NCBI GenBank assembly: GCA_965197285.1
Contig: OZ240092.1
Location: forward strand, 4,726,335-4,790,334
DNA: 64,000 nucleotides
Reading direction: 5' to 3'
Origin: Acidobacteriota bacterium
Lineage (GTDB): Bacteria; Acidobacteriota; UBA6911; RPQK01; CBDAPI01
Shown here: positions 12,205-63,918 of the stretch, in pieces
Layout: every line of letters starts with the position of its first letter
How positions within the stretch are numbered: position 1 is the stretch's first letter
The notes under the pieces: generated by a model
Seen by the model: only the letters and a program-made list of their open reading frames with translations
Databases searched by the model: none
Told to the model about the DNA's origin: nothing
Made by a program: the position numbers and the translations under genes

Positions 12205-13830
12205 AGATTGCGCGCTCATTAAAGGACTAAGCTGAAACTTGATTTGCCACCTCCATCGGAACAAGAGCGTAACCCATTGATTTTGCGACCTTTTGAGCGT
12301 ACTTGAGCCGATTCTGCTGGAAACGTGCCTCATAGGTCTCAGCTCCCTGATCAACGTACTCCTGACCGTATTTCAGTGCCCGATAAATGTGTTCGCAGAG
12401 CTTGCGCGCAGTGGCTCCAATGGCGATGGACATGCCTTTGCGCTGAGCCATTCTCCGATAGTAGGCACCCAATGCTGTTGAGGAATACTTCAGAGACAGA
12501 GACGCCATGCGAAGGGTGCAGGCAATTCGGGTCGATCCCAGGCCCCTTCCACGACGCTTGCGGCTTTTGCCGGCAGAACGATCCAAGGGGGTGCAAACCT
12601 TGAGCCAGGATGCAAAGTGCTTGGTGGAGGGAAAACGCTGGATGTCGAATCCTACTTCACTGACTGCGGTCAATGCGGCTTCTGGGCCGATGGCGTCGAT
12701 TCGGGTCAGGTCGACCCCTGTAAATCGCCACAGAGCCGTGCGCAGTTCGTGATATCCCTGTCGTTTGATGTTCTTCTCTTTGGTGGGATTGGGATGTACC
12801 GGCACCGGCTGTTGTTGACGCTCGGGCGGGCTCAACTCTTCCAGCCGCTGGATGATCTTCTGCTCATAAACCTCCACCATCTTTTGCAGATACTCATAGT
12901 GCTCCAGATGCATCTGGAGATTGAACAAATGCTCGGGCATCCAGGTTCCCTTCAAGTGCTCGGAAATCTCTTGTTCACTTTTCTTACAGCGACGATCTCT
13001 CAACTGGGCCAGCTTCAGAGGATCTCGTTCTCCCGCCACGATGGCTCGTAGAATCGACATTCCCGTCACTCCCGTCACATCCGTCACGGCTTGGTGAACT
13101 TTGATATTCATCCAGTCCAGCGCCTTCTGCATGCGCTGCACCACCGATCCCAAGGCTTCTTTCAGGTTGGCCCGCTCTCGGGCCAGAGCTCGCAACTCCC
13201 GAATCACGGGCGAGGGGCGGAAACAGGCCTCCAGCAGTCCACATGCGTGTAGCTTCTGGATCCACTGGCAGTCCAACATATCGGTCTTCCGGCCGGGGAC
13301 CCGCTTGAGCTTGCGGGCATCCACCAGCACCACCTCGATGCCCCGTTCTTCCAGCAGATCGTACAAGGGATCCAATATGTTCCCGTACTCTCGATGGCCA
13401 CCGACTTCACTCTCTCTTGGTGCAGCCAGTCCGCCGCCGCCTCCAACTCTGACGTGATGGTCCCGAATACTCGCACATTCGGCACTCCCTCCTCCCTCTC
13501 GGGGGCACAGATCCAATGCTCTCGACTGCCGGCATCGACTCCTGCTACCCGGCTTTGGACGACCAGCAGCCCTCGGGCTGCTGGCTGTCTTTTTCGGCCT
13601 CGCTTCCTCTTGCTTTTCTTCTTGGCTTTCATGCTATCGTTGAACCTCCATCAGGAAATGTGCGAGCTGTGGCCCGAGGTGGCTATGCTGCTAAATCTAA
13701 GCTTCGGGATGGTCCCCTTGGGGGCCTCACCAGTGAATCATGGCCGACTCGGGACCAGGCTGAGATTCGAGCATTGATGCTTCAGTGTCTGCAGGGTCTT
13801 GACTGCCACAGCTCGCACATAGCCTATCGA
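12205..13830 (-). mobile_element. IS110-family insertion sequence, placed immediately downstream of the PQQ-repeat gene. Boundaries are approximate; this family lacks classical TIRs
   Basis: The transposase has a DEDD N-domain (VAGVDAGSREHWICAP...ESTGTYWIP) and the IS110/IS902 C-domain. The transposase stop at 12227 is 26 nt from the PQQ gene stop. The 5' leader contains a 14-bp inverted repeat, GTGCGAGCTGTGGC at 13661-13674 pairing with GCCACAGCTCGCAC at 13809-13822. Confidence 0.6.
12227..13632 (-). pseudogene. IS110 family transposase, interrupted by a 1-nt frameshift in a T run (the two ORFs 13204..13632 and 12227..13516 are one gene)
   Basis: Frame A reads ...ESTGTYWIP and then goes out of frame. 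Frame B continues ...ILDPLYDLLEERGIEVVLV... The sequence is ACATATTGGATCCCTTGTACGAT. Reading CCCTTTG in place of CCCTTG (one extra T; plus-strand AA at 13365-13366) gives the contiguous canonical ...TYWIPLYDLL. Confidence 0.75.
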
Positions 13831-14528: not shown

Positions 14529-14566
14529 CATCTGCCGGCCACGTCTGTTAGGTTGGACCAGCCGTG

Positions 14567-14851
14567 ATGGATGAAGTCACACTCGAATCAACCGTGGAAC
14601 TCCCGCCCAAAGTCACCTTTGGCAATATGGACGATGAAGTGGCCATTTTTCACGAGGAAACCGGCCAGTACTACGGGCTCGATGATGTGGGTAGTCGAGT
14701 GTGGAAAGCCTTTCACCAAACCGGTTCGCTCCGTGAAGCTCATACCGTGCTGATGAAGGAATTCGAGATCGAGGACAGCGATCTGGAAGAAGCCATCATC
14801 GAGTTCGTCAAGGAACTGGTTGAGCTGGAGCTCCTCGCGGTCAAGCCGTGA
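14567..14851 (+). CDS. PqqD-family RiPP recognition element (lasso-peptide B1-type chaperone)
   Basis: About 94 aa. Classic PqqD/RRE pattern ...GQYYGLDDVGSRVWKAFHQTGSLREAHTVLMKEFEIEDSDLEEAIIEFVKELVELELL. It lies 36 nt upstream of, and in the same frame as, the Asn-synthetase-like gene. Confidence 0.75.
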   Translation: MDEVTLESTVELPPKVTFGNMDDEVAIFHEETGQYYGLDDVGSRVWKAFHQTGSLREAHTVLMKEFEIEDSDLEEAIIEFVKELVELELLAVKP

Positions 14852-14887: not shown

Positions 14888-16612
14888 TTGCCAACTATCC
14901 CTGAAGACGATCGTCCGGCCAGTTGGCAGACCGGCACCTGCGGCCGGATTAACTGGCAGGTGCGGGTCGCGTCTAAGGGGGCCCTCCGGGAACCATCGCA
15001 TCCGATCCGAGTCCTGTTCGCTCGTGGACACTTTCTGAATGAGGCTCTACCTGCGTCCGGCTCAGGCCCGGGTTGGGAGCATCGCCAGCTGGAGACGCTG
15101 TACCTGCGGCATGGACACGGCCAGTTGAGCCGGCTTCTCGAAGGGGACCTTTCCTTCGCCCTGTGGGATGGCCGCGCGATGAGCCTGGTTCTCTCGACCG
15201 ATCGACTTGGTCTGCACCCCATCTACTACTACCGCCACAGCGACAGGTTGTTCGTTTCCTGGAAGGTGGAGGACCTCGTCCCGTACCTCCCCGACTCCCA
15301 ACCCGACATGAGAAGCCTTTCGGCTCACGTGGCGGGCTTTTTGCTGCCCGAGGGCCGGACGTTCTACGACGGAATTCAGAGAATCCCGGCAGGGATGATT
15401 GCGAGGGTGTACGAAGATGATCTTGAGCAGAAGAAGTACTGGAGCCTGGAAGGGTCGAGACCGGCACCGAGGGATGCTGAGGCCTGTGCCGGTGAGCTTA
15501 ACGAGCGTCTCCGCGAAGTGCACCGCAGCTGGCTTCGTGTGTTGCCCGCTCCCGTCGGCATCGCGCTCAGCAGCGGGTTGGATTCCGGCAGCGTCGCAGC
15601 CGTCGTGCGCGGTCTCGATTCCAGCCCATTGATTCGGGCTTTCTCATGGGTTCACCCGGGCTTGCCCGAGGCCGACGAATCGGCCGGGATCGAGGACGTG
15701 TGCCGGACCCTGAATCTGGACCTGACGCGGATTGAAGCGGACCGGCATTGGACGCTGTGTGACCCGCAAGGGCTGACGACTTCCATCCAGGGCCCGGAGG
15801 CTCACTACTACCGGGAGAGCTGGGAAGTGACGTTTCAGAGAGCGAAATCTCAGGGTCACCACTATCTGTTCTCCGGTGTCGGGGGGGACGAGTTGTTCGG
15901 GGGAATAAGTTCCTACACCGATCTATTCCTCTGCGGCCGCTGGTTTTCGCTGCTGCGGCAACTGCTTCGCGAACGCAGGGACGCCGGGTTCGGCCCGCGT
16001 TACATTTTCAGTTCTACCCTGAATCCGTGGCTGCGGAATCGGTTTCCCCGCTGGCAGCTAAGACGGATGAGGTTGCCTGTCTGGCTGACGGAGGCGACCA
16101 GAGAGCGGGTCCGGGGACTCTTGCTGCCGCCTTTTCATTCGAGGCGGGGTGACTTCGGCCGGCAGCTTCGCATCCGTTTCCTGCAGAACCTGGCCCGCAG
16201 CAGACAGATCCTGCAGGTTTCCAGGATCGGTGAGGTCGCCGGGCTGGGGATGATCCACCCCCTGCTGGACCGGCGGGTGGTCGAGTTCGCGGCCAGCTTG
16301 CCCGCTACCCAGAACTTTCATGCCGGGAAGGACAAAATGATCTTGAGACGAGCCTTCCAGGAAATCCTGCCGGCTCCCATCATCCAACGGAAACGAAAGA
16401 TCACCGTCGAGACCCTGTTTCATCGAGGATTGCGCGAACGGGAAACGGCAAAGGTATGGCCCTTGTTGCAGGATATGCGTGCCGCAGACCTGGGGCTTGT
16501 GGATCAGGCTTCTGTGCGCCACCAGTACCGTCAATACCTGAAGGGAGAGGGCAGCGCCCTTGGCATCTGGAATGCACTCACCGTCGAAGACTGGCTGCGG
16601 CGCTACTTCTGA
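14888..16612 (+). CDS. Asparagine synthetase-like protein, lasso-peptide cyclase (C) type, with a TTG start
   Basis: 574 aa. AsnB N-domain remnant (LSFALWDGRAMSLVLSTDRLGLHPIYYY) that lacks the Cys2 nucleophile. PP-loop LSSGLDSGSVAAVV. Downstream ...FSGVGGDELFGG. This architecture, paired with a PqqD protein, is the lasso cyclase signature. Confidence 0.7.
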   Translation: MPTIPEDDRPASWQTGTCGRINWQVRVASKGALREPSHPIRVLFARGHFLNEALPASGSGPGWEHRQLETLYLRHGHGQLSRLLEGDLSFALWDGRAMSLVLSTDRLGLHPIYYYRHSDRLFVSWKVEDLVPYLPDSQPDMRSLSAHVAGFLLPEGRTFYDGIQRIPAGMIARVYEDDLEQKKYWSLEGSRPAPRDAEACAGELNERLREVHRSWLRVLPAPVGIALSSGLDSGSVAAVVRGLDSSPLIRAFSWVHPGLPEADESAGIEDVCRTLNLDLTRIEADRHWTLCDPQGLTTSIQGPEAHYYRESWEVTFQRAKSQGHHYLFSGVGGDELFGGISSYTDLFLCGRWFSLLRQLLRERRDAGFGPRYIFSSTLNPWLRNRFPRWQLRRMRLPVWLTEATRERVRGLLLPPFHSRRGDFGRQLRIRFLQNLARSRQILQVSRIGEVAGLGMIHPLLDRRVVEFAASLPATQNFHAGKDKMILRRAFQEILPAPIIQRKRKITVETLFHRGLRERETAKVWPLLQDMRAADLGLVDQASVRHQYRQYLKGEGSALGIWNALTVEDWLRRYF

Positions 16613-16788
16613 GCATTTTCTGCGCGGCCGGTTGCACACCGGACCGGCGGAAGCCTGCGAAACTGAAATTGGGTGTCTGCAGCAACTCCAGCCTGGCCGG
16701 CCAGTCGCGGACGGCCCGTACTTGCCACGGTTCATTCAATCTGGTATCTGTACACCCGAATGTTGCAGGACCGATCTTTTTGACGGGC

Positions 16789-16999
16789 ATGTCCGACTCC
16801 GTAAGCACCCTGTGGCCCGCCTACTACCTTTTTGGATGCAGTGTTCGGAGCAATTTTCCCTTCAGCATCGAACTCCCTCCCTCTGAACAAGAACCGGACC
16901 TGACGCTCAGCTTTCATCCGGGCACGACGAGCGGCCTGCAGGACGGACTCGAACCCCTGTATGCGAGTGACCTCGTGAACGAGGCCGGCGTGGCTCTAG
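16789..16999 (+). pseudogene. 5' fragment of an HprK-like Ser kinase gene (lasso-peptide kinase type), cut off by the IS1380 insertion at 17000
   Basis: The frame is open from downstream of the cyclase stop; the first ATG is at 16789 (a TTG at 16669 is also possible). It reads ...LEPLYASDLVNEAGVALA and then runs into the IS, producing an IS-derived tail RIMQEP*. It is in frame with the 3' fragment once the IS and one TSD copy are removed. Confidence 0.65.
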
Positions 17000-18650
17000 C
17001 CCGGATTATGCAAGAACCGTAGTTCGGTGTTGAAAACGACTCGAGAAGTGGCCCAACTCGGAAGCGGGCAGGTGTGACAGGCGGATTTGCGAAGAATATG
17101 GGTTGGCGAGGCGTTTGAGTGGTTTGGGGAGTGAATTTCAGACAGATCTGGGCCTGGATGAGTGTCGGAAGCGGTTTTTCGGGGGAGCTGGGAAAAGCTA
17201 ACTGGAGTTCAGGCGACTCAAGACGAGGTGGAAGAGGGGTTGTTCGGGGAAGGCTGAGGAAAGATGGACCCAGATGCGTCGAGTGGTTTGTCGGATCCGG
17301 GCCCCAATCTTGAGGACCCGACGACGTAAGGTTTCGATTTCGAGCTTGTGCCAGGGGGTTCCGTGAAGATAGTCGCGCAGGCGCACGAACATCTGGTAAG
17401 CCAGTGCATGCAGGAGGAGTCGAAACTGATTGGCCAGGAATCGATGACAGCTGAGTCGGTCCATGCTCAGATGATTCTTGAAGGCCTTGATGAAGTTCTC
17501 GGTCTGCCCTCGGTTTGTGTAGTGGTCATAAAGTGATTGGGAGCAGAGATCGTCCCGGTTGGCAACTACAAAGCGACGATTGATGCCACGCTGATCGACC
17601 TCCACTTTGACAATGACGCGACGGGATCGATCCCAGCTGTGGGCTCGATAAAGAAACTCGTCAAACTGACGCTGTTTTTCCTCCAGCTCAAGGAACCTCA
17701 GCCGAGTCGAATCCAGCAGGGGCTCGACCACTCGCTGCAGGCGAGGGTTTCGACTTAACCCAATGACATACTGGAGTTTATTCTCTTCACATTCACAGAA
17801 CTCGTAGAGCCGAGGCGTGGCAAAGCCGCTGTCGGCCCGAATCTCAATCTCGACATCCGTCCCCACTGCTTGTCGGATGGCCTCCACGACTCGCTTCAGA
17901 ATGGGCACGATGTGAGAGGCAGCCCCCTTGTTGCCAGGTCTCAACACGGCACAGACCAGGTCTCCCGTGTCGGCATCGAAGATCAGCAAAGGATGCAGAA
18001 TGTGGTTTCGGTAATACCCGTGGTAGAAGGAGAACTCCTGTTGGCCGTGAGTGTGGTCGTCGGTACTGTCCAGATCCAGGATGATCTTGCTGGGACGTCT
18101 CTTCTTCAGGGAGCGCACATAACGGCCTGGCAGCCACCGGCTCAGACGCATCAGATCCTTCTTGGTGACGGAGTTCTCCAAGCGGGAAAAAGTCGGCTGG
18201 GTGGCCAAATCGGGATCGCTCTCTGGCAACTGATCACAGACTGTCTTGAGCATCGGATCCGAGCGCAGCGTATCGGCGTCATTACAGTCTTCGTAGCCGG
18301 CCACGATCTGCAAGACTCGTTGTCGGATCAACTTCAACAGGTCATGACGAACGTAGCGTCGGTCTCGACTTTCCGCAATACACGAACTGAAGCCCTCGCA
18401 CAATCGATGTTGACGATCCAGGGATCCAAACAACAACCATCCTGCGTCGGAAGTGAGGCTCCCCCCATCAAAACGCGTCGTGATCTTTCTGTGGCTGTGA
18501 AATGGCAGGGTATTCTGGCAGACTGCTTTCAACATTGCCGTAGCTCCTGTTTAGGGTCATTGTTTTTGTAAACCCTTTTATATCAGAGGGCTACGGCTTT
18601 TTCCTGGAGCCAGAATCTCACTCGGATTCAGATCTTTTGCATAATCCGGG
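17000..18650 (-). mobile_element. IS1380-family insertion sequence, copy 1 (1651 bp), flanked by a 4-bp direct repeat CTAG at 16996-16999 and 18651-18654
   Basis: The ends are CCCGGATTATGCAAGAA (17000-17016) and the reverse complement of CCCGGATTATGCAAAAG (18634-18650). They begin with CC, as in the IS1380 family. Perfect 4-bp target-site duplications lie on both sides. It contains a 445-aa DDE transposase. Confidence 0.85.
17198..18535 (-). CDS. IS1380 family DDE transposase
   Basis: 445 aa. The N-terminus LPFHSHRKITTRFDGGSLTSDAGWLLFGSLDRQHRLCEGF...QRVLQIVAGYEDCNDADTLRSDPMLK is typical of IS1380-family (DDE_Tnp_1-like) transposases. It is near-identical to the ORF at 28689..30029. Confidence 0.85.
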   Translation of the reverse strand: MLKAVCQNTLPFHSHRKITTRFDGGSLTSDAGWLLFGSLDRQHRLCEGFSSCIAESRDRRYVRHDLLKLIRQRVLQIVAGYEDCNDADTLRSDPMLKTVCDQLPESDPDLATQPTFSRLENSVTKKDLMRLSRWLPGRYVRSLKKRRPSKIILDLDSTDDHTHGQQEFSFYHGYYRNHILHPLLIFDADTGDLVCAVLRPGNKGAASHIVPILKRVVEAIRQAVGTDVEIEIRADSGFATPRLYEFCECEENKLQYVIGLSRNPRLQRVVEPLLDSTRLRFLELEEKQRQFDEFLYRAHSWDRSRRVIVKVEVDQRGINRRFVVANRDDLCSQSLYDHYTNRGQTENFIKAFKNHLSMDRLSCHRFLANQFRLLLHALAYQMFVRLRDYLHGTPWHKLEIETLRRRVLKIGARIRQTTRRIWVHLSSAFPEQPLFHLVLSRLNSS

Positions 18651-18654
18651 CTAG

Positions 18655-19424
18655 CCCGTCTGTACGAGCATCATGACGGGTATCTCCTCAGAATGGCGGG
18701 AGTTGCGGATTTCGGGATAGGCGAAAAACAGCTGCGATGCTTTCCCAGTAGCGAAAACATCAGCTCGATCGAGAGCCTTCTGCTGCAGGCAGCGATGAGC
18801 TTCTGGCTCGAGACCATCGGTCGTCCGGTTCTACACGCATCCTGCATCGCAGATGCCGACCGGGCCGCAGCCTTTCTGGCTTTCAGCGGCAGCGGGAAGA
18901 GCACTCTGGCGGCGGCCTTCCTGAAAGACGGGTACCGGCTGGTCTCAGATGATTCCCTTCCGGTTGAGATTCACGAGAAACAGGTTCTGGCCTGGCCTTG
19001 TCATCCCCGCATCAAGATGGCACCCGAGCAGGCTAGGTTGTTTCTAGACGAGGTGGATCACCTCCCACCTGCGGATGGTTTCTCGAGTAAGATCGGAGTC
19101 CCGGTCAGGGAAACCTGGTCGGGCAGCTTCGGGACATCTCCCCGAAGACTGGTGTGCTGCTATCTTCCGGAGCACGGGCCGGATCAGAGGGATGTCGTCA
19201 TCGAGCCGGTTCGGGGAGCCGCGGCGGTCATCGAGTTGGTCCGCCACTCGCTGGTTCCCCGGCTGACGGCGGGAGCCGGAATGCAGAAAGAGCGATTTCG
19301 CCTGCTGCACCGGATTGCCACGCGGCTGAAGGTGTGCCCGCCTGGCTTATCCGTCGGGAGTCGACTCCCTGCATGCCGTCCGGGAGGCCGTAATGGCCCA
19401 TCTGACAAGCCTCCCCTAGACTAG
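18655..19424 (+). pseudogene. 3' fragment of the HprK-like Ser kinase gene (listed ORF 18693..19424). The frame is open back to the IS junction
   Basis: HPr kinase C-domain-like P-loop and signature: AFLAFSGSGKSTLAAAFLKDGYRLVSDDSLPV. In-frame codons 18654-18692 (ARLYEHHDGYLLR) have no stop. Together with 16789..16999 they form a 981-nt (326-codon) ORF. Confidence 0.7.
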
Positions 19425-19487: not shown

Positions 19488-20669
19488 TCAGCTTCCACCC
19501 CTCAGACCGCCAAGGGCCAGACGAAGGGGCCTGAGCAGGCGGTAGAGTGGAAAGAGTCCCGGCGGCAGGGAAATCCACCTGCAGTCCCTGCTCGAAGGTG
19601 TCAGCAGAGACCTCTGCAGGTACCGGATCTGATCAAGCCTTCGCTCCCGGAGACGGAGTTTCCGGCCAAGGGGTTCCGGGAAGGGGCCGAGGCCTTCCAT
19701 CGATTCCAGTAAGGAACCTTCAATTTCCTGGGCCAGACGGTGAGCAGGCGCGTCAGTGCGCACGGTGGCGAACCACTCCTGCGGAAGGGAAGCGGAGAAC
19801 AGGCGGGCGGCCAACAGGGCGCCCACCCTCAGCATCCGAAGTCCCCCTCTCTCCCGAGCCCGGGTCTGCGCCTGCTTCCAATCCGCGTGGGAGAATTCGT
19901 GGAGGGCCCAGGCCAGGTCACAGATCCATTTGGGCGACGACCAGAGATGCTTTGCGCCGTGGGCGGCGATCAGCAGCAGGAGATCTCCCGCGGAAAGAGT
20001 ACGAAATTCATGACCCGAGATGGCAACTGCTCGTCTGTCGTTCCAGAGCTTCTCAAAGGGCAACTCAAGGGAGAAATATCGAGGCAGCGCTGCCCAGTGA
20101 ATCTCAACTGTCATGCGGGGGTCGTCGCGCGTCATCATGGCCTGATCCCACCACAGAAAACGCAAGAAGTCGGGTCGTGAGAAAAACTCCTTTAAGTGCC
20201 CGCGGTCCCATTCGGGCAACCAGTGGTCGTATCCACGACTGAGCAGGAGATGCAATACAGGCAAAACGTCCTGCCGATGAATCAGCAGGTCCAGATCATC
20301 GAAGCTTCTCGATCCCAGGTTGCGATAGCAGAGGGTGGCCAGGACAGGCCCCTTGACAGCCAGGACTCGGATATTGCTGTTCTCGATCTCCCGGCAGACT
20401 CGGATCAATTCACGAACTCGTATCAGATTGCGAAGATTGTTGCCGTGGAAAATGTGCGACAGCTTTTCCCGATTCTCAGGCGAGAGGCCGGGTCGGTCCT
20501 TGAGCCGCCATGCCACGATCGGAAGCAACCTGGCGTGCTCGGCCCGCTTCAGGAAATCCTCCCAGGCCGGCGCGAGCTTCGATTGTTGCTCGATCGCAGA
20601 AAAAGACGCGTCTGTCGGTCGCGGGGATGCGAGATCAAACAGAACCCGGGTCAAATCTGAATCAGGCAT
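19488..20669 (-). CDS. NTP_transf_5-type uncharacterised nucleotidyltransferase
   Basis: 393 aa. ...VLAVKGPVLATLCYRNLGSRSFDDLDLLIHRQDVLPVLHLLLSRGYD...VEIHWAALPRY matches the PF14907-like pattern. Its start is 2 nt from the acyl-CoA dehydrogenase stop. It is convergent with the kinase gene. Confidence 0.6.
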   Translation of the reverse strand: MPDSDLTRVLFDLASPRPTDASFSAIEQQSKLAPAWEDFLKRAEHARLLPIVAWRLKDRPGLSPENREKLSHIFHGNNLRNLIRVRELIRVCREIENSNIRVLAVKGPVLATLCYRNLGSRSFDDLDLLIHRQDVLPVLHLLLSRGYDHWLPEWDRGHLKEFFSRPDFLRFLWWDQAMMTRDDPRMTVEIHWAALPRYFSLELPFEKLWNDRRAVAISGHEFRTLSAGDLLLLIAAHGAKHLWSSPKWICDLAWALHEFSHADWKQAQTRARERGGLRMLRVGALLAARLFSASLPQEWFATVRTDAPAHRLAQEIEGSLLESMEGLGPFPEPLGRKLRLRERRLDQIRYLQRSLLTPSSRDCRWISLPPGLFPLYRLLRPLRLALGGLRGGS

Positions 20670-28554: not shown

Positions 28555-28573
28555 AACCTCTCAACCGGCTTAG

Positions 28574-30228
28574 CCCGGATTATGCAAGAGATCTAAATTC
28601 AAGTGAGATTTGGGCCCAGAAAAAAGGCCGTAGCTCTCTGATATAAAAGGGTTTAGAGAAACAAAGACCCTAAACAGGAGCTACGGCAATGTCAAAAACA
28701 GTCTGCCAGAATACCCTGCCATTTCATAGCCACAGAAACATCACGGCTCGTTTTGATGGGGGGAGCCTCACTTCCGACGCAGGATGGTTGTTGTTTGGAT
28801 CCCTGGATCGTCAACATCGATTGTGCGAGGGCTTCAGTTCGTGTATTGCGGAAAGTCGAGACCGACGCTATCACGTTCGTCATGACCTGTTGAAGTTGAT
28901 CCGACAACGAGTCTTGCAGATCGTGGCCGGCTACGAAGACTGTAACGACGCCGATACGCTGCGCTCGGATCCGATGCTCAAGACAGTCTGTGATCAGTTG
29001 CCAGAGAGCGATCCCGATTTGGCCACCCAGCCGACTTTCTCCCGCCTGGAGAACTCCGTCACCAAGAAGGATCTGATGCGTCTGAGCCGGTGGCTGCCAG
29101 GCCGTTATGTGCGCTCCCTGAAGAAGAGACGTCCCAGCAAGATCATCCTGGATCTGGACAGTACCGACGACCACACTCACGGCCAACAGGAGTTCTCCTT
29201 CTACCACGGGTATTACCGAAACCACATTCTGCATCCTTTGCTGATCTTCGATGCCGACACGGGAGACCTGGTCTGTGCCGTGTTGAGACCTGGCAACAAG
29301 GGGGCTGCCTCTCACATCGTGCCCATTCTGAAGCGAGTCGTGGAGGCCATCCGACAAGCAGTGGGGACGGATGTCGAGATTGAGATTCGGGCCGACAGCG
29401 GCTTTGCCACGCCTCGGCTCTACGAGTTCTGTGAATGTGAAGAGAATAAACTCCAGTATGTCATTGGGTTAAGTCGAAACCCTCGCCTGCAGCGAGTGGT
29501 CGAGCCCCTGCTGGATTCGACTCGGCTGAGGTTCGTTGAGCTGGAGGAAAAACAGCGTCAGTTTGACGAGTTTCTTTATCGAGCCCACAGCTGGGATCGA
29601 TCCCGTCGCGTCATTGTCAAAGTGGAGGTCGATCAGCGTGGCATCAATCGTCGCTTTGTAGTTACCAACCGGGACGATCTCTGCTCCCAATCACTTTATG
29701 ACCACTACACAAACCGAGGGCAGACCGAGAACTTCATCAAGGCCTTCAAGAATCATCTGAGCATGGACCGACTCAGCTGTCATCGATTCCTGGCCAATCA
29801 GTTTCGACTCCTCCTGCATGCACTGGCTTACCAGATGTTCGTGCGCCTGCGCGACTATCTTCACGGAACCCCCTGGCACAAGCTCGAAATCGAAACCTTA
29901 CGTCGTCGGGTCCTCAAGATTGGGGCCCGGATCCGACAAACCACTCGACGCATCTGGGTCCATCTTTCCTCAGCCTTCCCCGAACAACCCCTCTTCCACC
30001 TCGTCTTGAGTCGCCTGAACTCCAGTTAGCTTTTCCCAGCTCCCCCGAAAAACCGCTTCCGACACTCATCCAGGCCCAGATCTGTCTGAAATTCACTCCC
30101 CAAACCACTCAAACGCCTCGCCAACCCATATTCTTCGCAAATCCGCCTGTCACACCTGCCCGCTTCCGAGTTGGGCCACTTCTCGAGTCGTTTTTCAACA
30201 CCGAACTACGGTTCTTGCATAATCCGGG
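28574..30228 (+). mobile_element. IS1380-family insertion sequence, copy 2 (1655 bp), flanked by a 4-bp direct repeat TTAG at 28570-28573 and 30229-30232. It is inverted relative to copy 1
   Basis: The ends are CCCGGATTATGCAAGAG (28574-28590) and the reverse complement of CCCGGATTATGCAAGAA (30212-30228). Perfect TTAG duplications lie on both sides. It sits between convergent genes (PIG-L and bshC). Confidence 0.85.
28689..30029 (+). CDS. IS1380 family DDE transposase
   Basis: 446 aa. It differs from the copy-1 transposase by a 1-codon indel (RRYHVRHD versus RRYVRHD) and a few substitutions (L/V, A/T, N-terminus MSKTVCQ versus MLKAVCQ). Confidence 0.85.
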   Translation: MSKTVCQNTLPFHSHRNITARFDGGSLTSDAGWLLFGSLDRQHRLCEGFSSCIAESRDRRYHVRHDLLKLIRQRVLQIVAGYEDCNDADTLRSDPMLKTVCDQLPESDPDLATQPTFSRLENSVTKKDLMRLSRWLPGRYVRSLKKRRPSKIILDLDSTDDHTHGQQEFSFYHGYYRNHILHPLLIFDADTGDLVCAVLRPGNKGAASHIVPILKRVVEAIRQAVGTDVEIEIRADSGFATPRLYEFCECEENKLQYVIGLSRNPRLQRVVEPLLDSTRLRFVELEEKQRQFDEFLYRAHSWDRSRRVIVKVEVDQRGINRRFVVTNRDDLCSQSLYDHYTNRGQTENFIKAFKNHLSMDRLSCHRFLANQFRLLLHALAYQMFVRLRDYLHGTPWHKLEIETLRRRVLKIGARIRQTTRRIWVHLSSAFPEQPLFHLVLSRLNSS

Positions 30229-30262
30229 TTAGCGTCAAACCTCAACGTGGAACGTGGAATTC

Positions 30263-62114: not shown

Positions 62115-62816
62115 CTACTGCCTCTGCGCGATGTAGATTTCGGCGATACCCGCCGATAGTTTAAGTGAGTCCGGTGTCGAAAAACCCGCGTCTACAAAGA
62201 GGCCTTCCAGTTCGACGCGCGGGGGAAACCCTTTCACCGACTCAGGGAGGTAGCGATAGGGGGCAACCCGACCCGAGATCAGACCTCCGATCACTGGAAG
62301 CAGGCGCTCGAAGTAGATTCGGTAGAGGGCTCCAAAGATTCTCGAATCGGGGGCTGCGAATTCCAGAACGGCCAGATACCCTCCAGCCCGGAGAACTCGG
62401 GCCACCTCGCCCAGGCCCCTCCCGTAATCCTCCAGGTTGCGAAGACCGAAGGCGATGGTCGCAACCTGGAAAGTGCGCGAGGGAAAGGGCAGGGCGAGCG
62501 CATCACCCTGCACGAAAAGAATTGGATTCGCAGTCTCCCTGCGCTGCACCTTGTGCATGCCCCGCATCAGCATGGGGCGTGAAAAGTCACACGCGGTTAC
62601 GGGACTGATTCTCGCCATCTCGAGTGCCAGGTCTGCGGTCCCGGTGCAAAGATCGAGGGCTCGACCGCAGGGCTCGAGTCGGGCCTCGAGCTGTTTTCTC
62701 GTGACCCTCCGCCAGTAGCGATCTACCGAGAAGGAAAGGAGATGATTCAGAAAGTCGTAGGTGGGAGCGATGGCACCGAACATGGCCCGAATCTTGCGGC
62801 CGTCTCTGTCAACCAT
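62115..62816 (-). CDS. menG: Demethylmenaquinone/ubiquinone C-methyltransferase UbiE/MenG
   Basis: ...MFGAIAPTYDFLNHLLSFSVDRYWRR... and the SAM-binding LDLCTGTADLA motif. Start at the internal Met (MVDRDG...). Confidence 0.8.
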   Translation of the reverse strand: MVDRDGRKIRAMFGAIAPTYDFLNHLLSFSVDRYWRRVTRKQLEARLEPCGRALDLCTGTADLALEMARISPVTACDFSRPMLMRGMHKVQRRETANPILFVQGDALALPFPSRTFQVATIAFGLRNLEDYGRGLGEVARVLRAGGYLAVLEFAAPDSRIFGALYRIYFERLLPVIGGLISGRVAPYRYLPESVKGFPPRVELEGLFVDAGFSTPDSLKLSAGIAEIYIAQRQ

Positions 62817-63918
62817 ACGACAGAGACTGTGCGGCTGCCCGTACCCTGGTCCACACCCCGGCCAGGAGAGCCTCTGATAGATCGCTCCGAATCTGGGTAT
62901 GGCCAATCCGGTCCAGGAGCACAAAGTGAACCATGTCCTCCTGGCGCTTCTTGTCGTGTTTCATCACTTCCAGCAGCTCTTGATGCCCGATATCGTCGAT
63001 GGGCGGCAGGGGGCCGACACTTCGAATCATTTCGGCAATTCGGTCCGCAGTCCTGGAATCCAGCAGGTCCAGCTCGAGCGAGAGTTCCGTCGCGGCCAGC
63101 ATTCCCAGTGCTACCGCCTCCCCGTGGGCCAGCCGTACGTACGAAGTGGCGGCTTCCAGGGCGTGTCCAAAGGTGTGCCCAAAATTCAGGATCCTGCGCA
63201 GGTCCGACTCCCTTTCGTCCCTGGACGTCACCTCGGCCTTGATCTCGCAGCAGCGGGCGATCACTCGCTCCAGAGTCTCATCTTCTCTGGCCCGCAAGCT
63301 GTCGAGGTGGGATTCAAGGAACGAAAAGAAGCTTGAGTCATAGATAAGGCCGTACTTGAGGACCTCGTAGAGACCCGACTGGAACTCACGTTCGGGCAGG
63401 GTGGACAGCATCGCCGTATCGATCAGCACGAGGCGGGGTTGATGGAAAGCCCCGACCATGTTTTTCCCCTTCTGGTGGTTGACTCCCGTTTTGCCACCCA
63501 CTGAGCTGTCTACTTGAGCCAGCAGCGTTGTCGGCATCTGAACGCAGTCGATCCCGCGCAGGAAGGTAGCCGCTACAAACCCGCTCATGTCGCCGGTAAC
63601 CCCTCCCCCCAGAGCCACAATGCTGGATTGGCGATCCGCGCGCTGAGCGGCAAGATAGGTATAGATCCTCTCTACGGTGTGCAGATTCTTGTGTGCCTCA
63701 CCGTCAGGAACCAGGATCTCGGTGACCTCGAACCCCGAGTCCTGGAGGCTGCGGCGAACCTGAGCCCCATGCAGCGAGAAGACTCTGTCGTTCGAGACCA
63801 GAAAGAGCCTTTTCCCGATGGAATACTCGAGGAACCGACTACCCGCCTCTTTGCCCAGGTCGGGTGCGATGAGGATGCTGTAACTTCTGGGCCCGAGCTC
63901 GACTTCAACTCTTCTCAT
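62809..63918 (-). CDS. aroB: 3-dehydroquinate synthase
   Basis: ...ALGGGVTGDMSGFVAATFLRGIDCVQMPTTLLAQVDSSVGGKTGVN...HGEAVALGM... is the canonical AroB. Confidence 0.85.
   Translation of the reverse strand: MRRVEVELGPRSYSILIAPDLGKEAGSRFLEYSIGKRLFLVSNDRVFSLHGAQVRRSLQDSGFEVTEILVPDGEAHKNLHTVERIYTYLAAQRADRQSSIVALGGGVTGDMSGFVAATFLRGIDCVQMPTTLLAQVDSSVGGKTGVNHQKGKNMVGAFHQPRLVLIDTAMLSTLPEREFQSGLYEVLKYGLIYDSSFFSFLESHLDSLRAREDETLERVIARCCEIKAEVTSRDERESDLRRILNFGHTFGHALEAATSYVRLAHGEAVALGMLAATELSLELDLLDSRTADRIAEMIRSVGPLPPIDDIGHQELLEVMKHDKKRQEDMVHFVLLDRIGHTQIRSDLSEALLAGVWTRVRAAAQSLSYG

Follow-up and report, generated by a model that had tools for sequence, protein, structure and literature searches.

An IS1380-family insertion sequence within an HprK-like kinase gene of an uncultured Acidobacteriota

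An insertion inside a kinase gene

An insertion sequence (IS) that lies between two open reading frames (ORFs) may have landed in a spacer or may have split a single gene, and the locus described here raises the question of which occurred and what was lost. The locus is part of a 64-kb stretch of DNA (the window) from contig OZ240092.1 of an uncultured soil member of the Acidobacteriota. An initial annotation, made from the sequence alone, had placed an IS1380-family element at positions 17000–18650, inside a gene for a kinase resembling the HPr kinase HprK that was thought to tailor a secondary metabolite, a lasso peptide. Comparison with related loci, in long-read metagenome-assembled genomes (MAGs) labelled Acidobacteriota, shows that the recent insertional inactivation of this kinase gene by an IS1380-family element is real, and the explanation as a whole is very probable. 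The features at the interruption are as follows.

16780–16999, + strand: HprK-like kinase gene, 5′ fragment, the last 4 nt being the left target-site duplication (TSD)
16996–16999, no strand: left TSD copy, CTAG
17000–18650, − strand: complete IS1380-family IS (copy A), 1651 bp, recognised by profile matches and terminal repeats
17198–18535, − strand: transposase ORF, DDE type, 445 aa, antisense to the kinase gene, with end-to-end family profile matches
18651–18654, no strand: right TSD copy, CTAG
18655–19419, + strand: kinase gene, 3′ part, with the His (LHAS), the P-loop GSGKST, the Asp-Asp pair (VSDD) and the native stop codon TAG at 19417–19419

The start of the kinase gene is placed at TTG 16780 by gene callers (MTGMSDS...) and was placed at ATG 16789 in the initial annotation. 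As had been described there, the upstream frame enters the IS, where it acquires the tail ...ARIMQEP* and stops at 17020–17022, while the downstream ORF (18693–19424) is open back to 18654, encoding ARLYEHHDGYLLR. This ORF of 243 aa begins at kinase residue 84, and in the end of the IS the frame is no longer open. The two pieces are called separately in public assemblies, as an 80-aa product (P0091) and a 243-aa product.

Removal of the IS and one CTAG joins 16789–16999 to 18655–19424 in phase (211 + 770 = 981 nt), exactly as had been calculated, to give a 326-aa protein in which the P-loop FSGSGKST lies near residue 146. The joined protein aligned as one continuous sequence, residue for residue, with 12 full-length orthologues (P0001–P0012) and was gapless at the junction (...GVALARLYEHHDGYLLRMA... 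versus ...GVALARLYKHHDGYLLRMA...). A DNA alignment with the orthologous gene in L002 was likewise gapless there, and a search of a protein collection with the join returned full-length matches of 323–362 aa, with identities from 85% downwards. An intact 327-aa allele (P0090), within the same 90% cluster, was found as a single gene at two loci, L022 and L023. Both contain GGCTCTAGCCCGTCTG, the exact empty site with a single CTAG, which is verbatim the sequence predicted for an uninterrupted allele. L022 is approximately 96–97% identical to the window over 20 kb and is from the same sample as L001, a second assembly that is 99.98% identical to the window and has the same IS in the same place. 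These comparisons of sequences confirm that the insertion is intragenic, within the HprK-like kinase gene, and that the event was a gene disruption rather than an intergenic landing.

The insertion sequence and its target

Elements of the IS1380 family are approximately 1.6–2 kb with a single ORF, short terminal inverted repeats starting 5′-CC and TSD of 4–5 bp. Copy A agrees with this description. Its only long ORF encodes the 445-aa transposase, which matched the NCBIfam model transpos_IS1380 (NF033539) with 371.3 bits over profile positions 3–418 of 419, above the curated cutoff of 180 bits, and the Pfam model DDE_Tnp_1_4 (PF13701) with an E-value of 6.5e-143 over positions 4–431 of 435. 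The 1651 bp are bounded by perfect 14-bp inverted repeats beginning 5′-CC, with CCCGGATTATGCAA at 17000–17013 and its complement at 18637–18650; they extend to 18 bp if the palindromic CTAG is counted in. Only 0.33 occurrences of this 14-mer would be expected in the window, so that the four observed put the inverted repeats well outside the range of chance. The remaining pair delimits a second copy of the element.

28574–30228, + strand (opposite orientation to copy A): same IS, second copy (copy B), 1655 bp, 98.2% identical

Direct repeats of TTAG (28570–28573 and 30229–30232) lie on either side of copy B. As TTAG is not palindromic, the 4 bp are a true TSD and the ends of the IS are correctly placed, which bears out both the extent given for copy A in the initial annotation and its perfect CTAG direct repeats. 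The possibility that CTAG is a part of the inverted repeats and not a duplication was considered and is ruled out by the TTAG direct repeats of copy B and of an insertion in L011; the inferred empty site is identical under either assignment. The three further insertions from related loci have CTAG, TTAG and CTAG at their borders, so that YTAG is duplicated at all five independent insertions (CTAG in three and TTAG in two; window, L004, L011 and L020). On sequence grounds, the element is an IS1380-family IS and a new sequence variant from an uncultured Acidobacteriota. Its transposase belongs to a 90% cluster of 1723 members.

CTAG is scarce in the window (59% G+C), with 34 sites against 233 expected from base composition. 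This is approximately 7-fold under-representation, and the tetranucleotide targeted by the IS is therefore a rare one with a stop codon inside it. At position 19034, within the 3′ fragment of the kinase gene, the window lineage alone has a synonymous C-to-T change (GGCCAGG to GGCTAGG), which has created a new CTAG and thus a potential new target for the IS.

The site of copy B is empty in L022, where the annotation has a gene for a PIG-L-domain protein on one side and a BshC-like gene on the other. Other IS were seen nearby. A transposase gene of the IS110 family (12227–13516, − strand) lies between a PQQ-propeller gene and maf in the window, and the same neighbourhood contains an IS256-type element in L022 and IS21-type elements in L002, one of which splits maf.

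Family and fold of the kinase

Direct sequence matches to solved structures were marginal (HprK/P, E-value 0.37) and a comparison of folds was therefore used, with an AlphaFold2 model of an 85%-identical orthologue (P0001; predicted local distance difference test score 95.1) standing in for the window protein. Foldseek matched this model to ATP-dependent phosphoenolpyruvate carboxykinase (ATP-PEPCK) over its whole length (E-value 3e-8) and to the C-terminal domain of HprK/P (1kkl, 3tqf and 2qmh; E-value 1.6e-6, probability 1.00). In an alignment of 67 homologues, the sole invariant columns were H, G, K, D and D, corresponding to the His, the P-loop Gly-Lys and the Asp-Asp pair, which the window allele carries as LHAS, GSGKST and VSDD. 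The invariant His, Lys and Asp residues match the His-Lys-Asp-Asp motif that is reported to be essential in lasso-peptide kinases (PMC9266682), including the Asp pair D158/D159 mutated in PsmK (PMC6993621).

The repaired protein also aligned by BLASTP with a kinase from Cohnella over residues 7–306 (E-value 5e-16, 27% identity), this kinase being a stand-in and not a characterised member of the family. It is encoded in a C-A-K-B1-B2-N-D cluster, with a precursor ending in Ser, and this is the gene order of the paeninodin and pseudomycoidin clusters (PMC11705953, PMC6993621). Homologues at 33–36% identity were found in canonical lasso clusters that include genes for PqqD (B1), Transglut_core3 (B2) and Asn-synthase (C) proteins and for precursors with a YxxPxLxxxG...LT leader. 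The description of the gene product as an HprK-like kinase is thus upheld by the fold match and by whole-length homology to kinases of canonical lasso clusters. Its assignment as a probable member of the lasso-peptide kinase family, made from sequence comparison and a modelled fold, stands.

The gene cluster and what it may make

Three intact genes that lie beside the kinase gene bear on its function.

14564–14851, + strand: PqqD-family peptide chaperone (lasso B1-like), upstream of the kinase gene and in the same operon
14888–16612, + strand: Asn-synthase-like protein (lasso cyclase C-like), 574 aa, intact, scoring below the NCBIfam lasso cutoff
19488–20669, − strand: NTP_transf_5 protein with a nucleotidyltransferase fold (PsmN-like), intact, convergent with the kinase gene

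Lasso clusters that include a kinase gene encode B1, C and N proteins homologous to the products of these three genes, PsmN being the comparison protein for the NTP_transf_5 neighbour (PMC6993621).

Several results weigh against a lasso function. The sequence models match only the P-loop segment of the kinase, and the Pfam Hpr_kinase_C model (PF07475), which the initial annotation had suggested as a check, scored below its gathering threshold (17.1 versus 33.3 bits) and covered only residues 148–183. The models for HprK-related kinases A and B (TIGR04352 and TIGR04355) gave 38.7 and 30.4 bits, where the cutoff is 200, which places the protein outside both. The neighbouring proteins are also sub-threshold, with 175 versus 525 bits for the lasso cyclase model and 50.6 versus 80 bits for the lasso PqqD model. 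The window and the loci L002 and L022, from its closest relatives, yielded no gene for B2 (Transglut_core3) by tblastn and, in six-frame translation, no precursor with a lasso leader motif. Of the set of precursor A, B1, B2 and C that makes up a lasso cluster, only B1-like and C-like genes are present. Two sets of candidates in the window were rejected. The tblastn matches to two B2 proteins were weak, the best (E-value 0.064, at 62995–63226) falling inside a 369-aa ORF (62809–63918, − strand) that may encode a 3-dehydroquinate synthase, and the six-frame search with a regular expression for the leader motif gave only chance matches inside long ORFs.

In a more distant clade, at 66% identity, two small tandem ORFs were found between the PqqD and Asn-synthase genes (L003:7814–8145, L004:7814–8145 and L011 at approximately 6032). 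They encode a lasso-type leader (FTxPxIxxYG...LT) followed by short or atypical cores ending in IYDIG or IIYDSL. The cores VTSIYDIG and SSPGESGQNTQGHIIYDSL do not fit a lasso ring, having no Asp or Glu at positions 7–9 or being too short. The tandem ORFs are absent from the window, L002 and L022, and there is no B2 gene in the L003, L004 and L011 loci. A lasso-like operon of this kind, with short candidate cores and no B2, may make a non-classical product.

A further Acidobacteriota MAG has an altered version of the locus (L012:5501–9570), in which the kinase homologue matches residues 9–185 and then runs into the NTP_transf_5 gene, and the Asn-synthase gene is split into two ORFs. This reflects either decay of the cluster or errors in the long-read consensus.

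The alternative that survives best is that the kinase does not tailor a lasso peptide and that the operon makes another product, for example a short-core, non-lasso ribosomally synthesised and post-translationally modified peptide (RiPP), or forms a cassette like those of HPr-rel-A or SynChlorMet (ScmC). The absence of B2 and of a canonical precursor is in keeping with this, as are the cores of the 66% clade, which follow a lasso-like leader. The best NCBIfam matches of the kinase are HprK_rel_A and HprK_rel_B, and some of its distant homologues carry the ScmC domain PF27840. However, the HprK_rel_A and HprK_rel_B scores are far under the cutoff, and, beyond the clade, the closest homologues whose gene context could be read are in canonical lasso clusters. 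There is precedent for clusters that have a PsmK homologue but no B proteins, and in vivo a lasso cyclase can do without them (PMC6993621). Genes for B2 and the precursor could also lie elsewhere in the genome. We consider a non-lasso product to be possible but unlikely. The earlier designation as a lasso tailoring gene is consistent with the B1-, C- and PsmN-like neighbours but was overstated, as neither B2 nor a precursor with the leader motif accompanies them.

A second lesion near the 3′ end

The kinase gene has a second defect, which the initial annotation had missed.

19337–19339, + strand: second lesion, +1 C (CCC run); L020, L021, L022 and L023 have CC, and the window and L001 share CCC

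The 3′ kinase frame of the window is shifted after this run and continues to 19424. The extra C puts the last 29 or so codons of the 326-codon ORF (...KVCPPGLSVGSRLPACRPGGRNGPSDKPPLD) in a different frame from that of every orthologue and replaces the conserved C-terminus (...VCRLAYPSGVDSLHAVREAVMAHLTSLP). All orthologues end in ...VCRL(T/A)YPSG(I/V)DSL.AVREAV..HL.SL(P/S), while the window frame reads ...VCPPGLSVGSRLPACRPGGRNGPSDKPPLD and the +1 frame reads ...RLAYPSGVDSLHAVREAVMAHLTSLP*. With one C removed in silico, the stop codon at 19417–19419 is reached and the protein is 324 aa from ATG 16789 or 327 aa from TTG 16780. The claim that excision restores a 326-codon ORF is therefore literally correct, in that the ORF is open, but excision alone would not restore the native kinase of 324 or 327 aa. 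Taking L022 as the outgroup places the gain of the extra C in the window lineage. A further point against the preferred explanation is that all of the genomes are metagenome assemblies, some with 4–19x long-read coverage, and the extra C could be a consensus error. This concern is countered by its presence in two assemblies.

Order and age of the events

A different allele of the insertion site is found in two further assemblies, the long-read assembly L020 and the k-mer assembly L021, made from a public run; their flanks are 99.9–99.99% identical to those of the window. The IS is absent and both CTAG copies are retained as CTAGCTAG (L020:2373–2380 and L021:1949–1956), the site reading GGCT-CTAG-CTAG-CCCGTCTG, and the kinase frame is thereby shifted by +4. 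The chance expectation for CTAGCTAG is approximately 0.02 per 64 kb. When CTAGCTAG, TTAGTTAG and CTAACTAA were searched for in the window and 11 related loci, none was found outside the kinase site, and there is thus no evidence from these sequences that such scars are common. These alignments are most simply explained if the IS was present in the common ancestor of the window strain and L020 and was later excised in the L020 lineage, leaving a transposase-type footprint.

As L020 and L021 have the footprint and do not have the extra C, the frameshift would postdate the insertion and belong to the window lineage. The ratio of non-synonymous to synonymous substitution rates (dN/dS) for the kinase gene was 0.165 between the window allele, repaired in silico, and L022, and 0.14–0.20 against more distant orthologues, which indicates that the kinase was under purifying selection until recently. 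Judged from these ratios, the knock-out is recent, with purifying selection lasting to the split from the relative that is approximately 97% identical. The 770-nt 3′ fragment shows raised divergence between the window and L020, with differences in both lineages; the coverage of L020 is only 4x.

The L020 and L021 loci contain another copy of the IS (L020:3145–4796 and L021:2721 onward), which has a CTAG duplication at the CTAG overlapping the stop codon of the kinase gene (window 19416–19419). The possibility that this is copy A after a hop of 770 bp downstream was rejected, as the copy in L020 has none of the 16 variants private to copy A and nine of its own. It is a separate insertion.

Three alleles of the site are thus available, empty (L022 and L023), occupied (window and L001) and with CTAGCTAG (L020 and L021), and we lean towards reading them as a natural record of cut-and-paste excision by an IS1380-family element. 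In such an event, cleavage would occur at both exact termini of the IS and the flanks would be re-ligated with both target duplications retained. The IS1380 family includes ISEcp1, the mobiliser of blaCTX-M. We know of no earlier indication of the excision chemistry or the donor-site fate for this family, and a search of the full-text literature on IS1380 excision or footprints returned nothing relevant. If correct, the record bears on both, and it implies that excision fails to rescue the gene, which is left with a +4 frameshift. The case is unusually well resolved in that public assemblies contain one 4-bp site empty, occupied and scarred. They give the order of events, with insertion first, then a frameshift in one lineage and, in another, excision with a +4 scar, as well as the YTAG target rule.

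The reverse order, in which the gene was first killed by the 3′ frameshift and the IS landed later in a pseudogene, is improbable. It would account for the presence of two lesions in the window allele, and the lack of B2 and of a precursor in the cluster and the truncated kinase and split Asn-synthase genes in L012 are compatible with it. However, the footprint without the extra C in L020 and L021 makes the insertion the earlier event, the dN/dS of 0.165 was obtained against the intact L022 allele, and intact orthologues have been kept in several related MAGs.

Still less probable is an assembly artefact, in which a repeated sequence was mis-threaded into the kinase gene. The IS is indeed multi-copy (two in the window, and the large transposase cluster) and the genomes are metagenome assemblies, but the junctions are identical in two separate assemblies that also have the 16 variants private to copy A in common. 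Copy A is flanked by a perfect 4-bp duplication, and the CTAGCTAG of the sister strain is sensible only if an IS was formerly at this site. The weakest explanation, two unrelated ORFs with the IS in the spacer between them, has nothing in its favour other than the listing of the 80-aa and 243-aa products apart by gene callers and can be dismissed in view of the gapless alignment to 12 full-length orthologues and the single 327-aa gene with the exact empty site in L022 and L023.

Proposed course of events

Insertional inactivation of an intact kinase gene would have proceeded as follows. An active IS1380-family IS would have transposed into a YTAG target, here the CTAG in the Leu-Ala codons of ...GVALARLY..., duplicating 4 bp. 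The target would have been 70 codons into the gene for the HprK-like P-loop kinase, the last gene of a PqqD, Asn-synthase-like and kinase operon in an uncultured Acidobacteriota. The insertion would cut the N-terminal beta-domain (approximately residues 1–70) from the catalytic part with the His, the P-loop Lys and the Asp-Asp pair, and with the two severed, no functional kinase would be possible. As no gene of the operon lies downstream of the kinase gene and its next neighbour is convergent, no polar effect on neighbouring genes is expected. The later +1 frameshift near the 3′ end would mark the start of pseudogene decay in the window lineage.

By analogy with PadeK, ThcoK and PsmK, the intact enzyme would phosphorylate a Ser or Thr near the C-terminus of a ribosomal peptide bound to PqqD, and the convergent PsmN-like enzyme would act on the phosphate. 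As the second step would depend on the phosphate added in the first, loss of the kinase would silence both tailoring steps.

The event itself is of an ordinary and well-documented kind, the knock-out of an accessory biosynthetic gene by an IS. It adds one member to the IS1380 family and, for an Acidobacteriota lineage rich in IS, one more inactivated tailoring gene of the RiPP type. Two side points, the footprint that retains the TSD and the lasso-like operon without B2, may be weightier than the insertion.

Comparison with known systems

The element resembles other members of the IS1380 family (e.g. IS1380, ISEcp1 and IS1247) in its single DDE transposase of approximately 445 aa, its length of approximately 1.65 kb, its 5′-CC inverted repeats and its 4-bp duplication. 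It differs in its clear preference for YTAG targets, seen in five of five insertions, and, unlike ISEcp1, it has no sign of one-ended mobilisation of flanking DNA.

The kinases PadeK, ThcoK, PsmK and SyanK are HprK-like and phosphorylate the C-terminal Ser of the precursor. The window kinase is like them in its size (324–329 aa), the His-Lys-Asp-Asp residues, the HprK/PEPCK-type fold and the neighbours homologous to B1, C and PsmN. Their clusters differ from that of the window, which has no B2, ABC (ATP-binding cassette) exporter or precursor, and no peptide with a C-terminal Ser is in sight. Homology to the paeninodin-type kinase from Cohnella is full-length, but the identity is only approximately 27%. 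Of the curated models, those for the HprK-related kinases A and B and ScmC (PF27840) score best on the P-loop segment, yet the window kinase is not a member of these groups.

The comparison with HprK/P itself is similar. The P-loop region (LHAS...GSGKST...VSDD) aligns to the HprK C-terminal domain, but the window kinase has a sub-threshold score, a different N-terminal domain and a whole-length fold nearer to that of ATP-PEPCK. Whereas HprK/P belongs to the phosphotransferase system and carbon catabolite control, the window kinase is encoded in what appears to be a peptide-modification operon.

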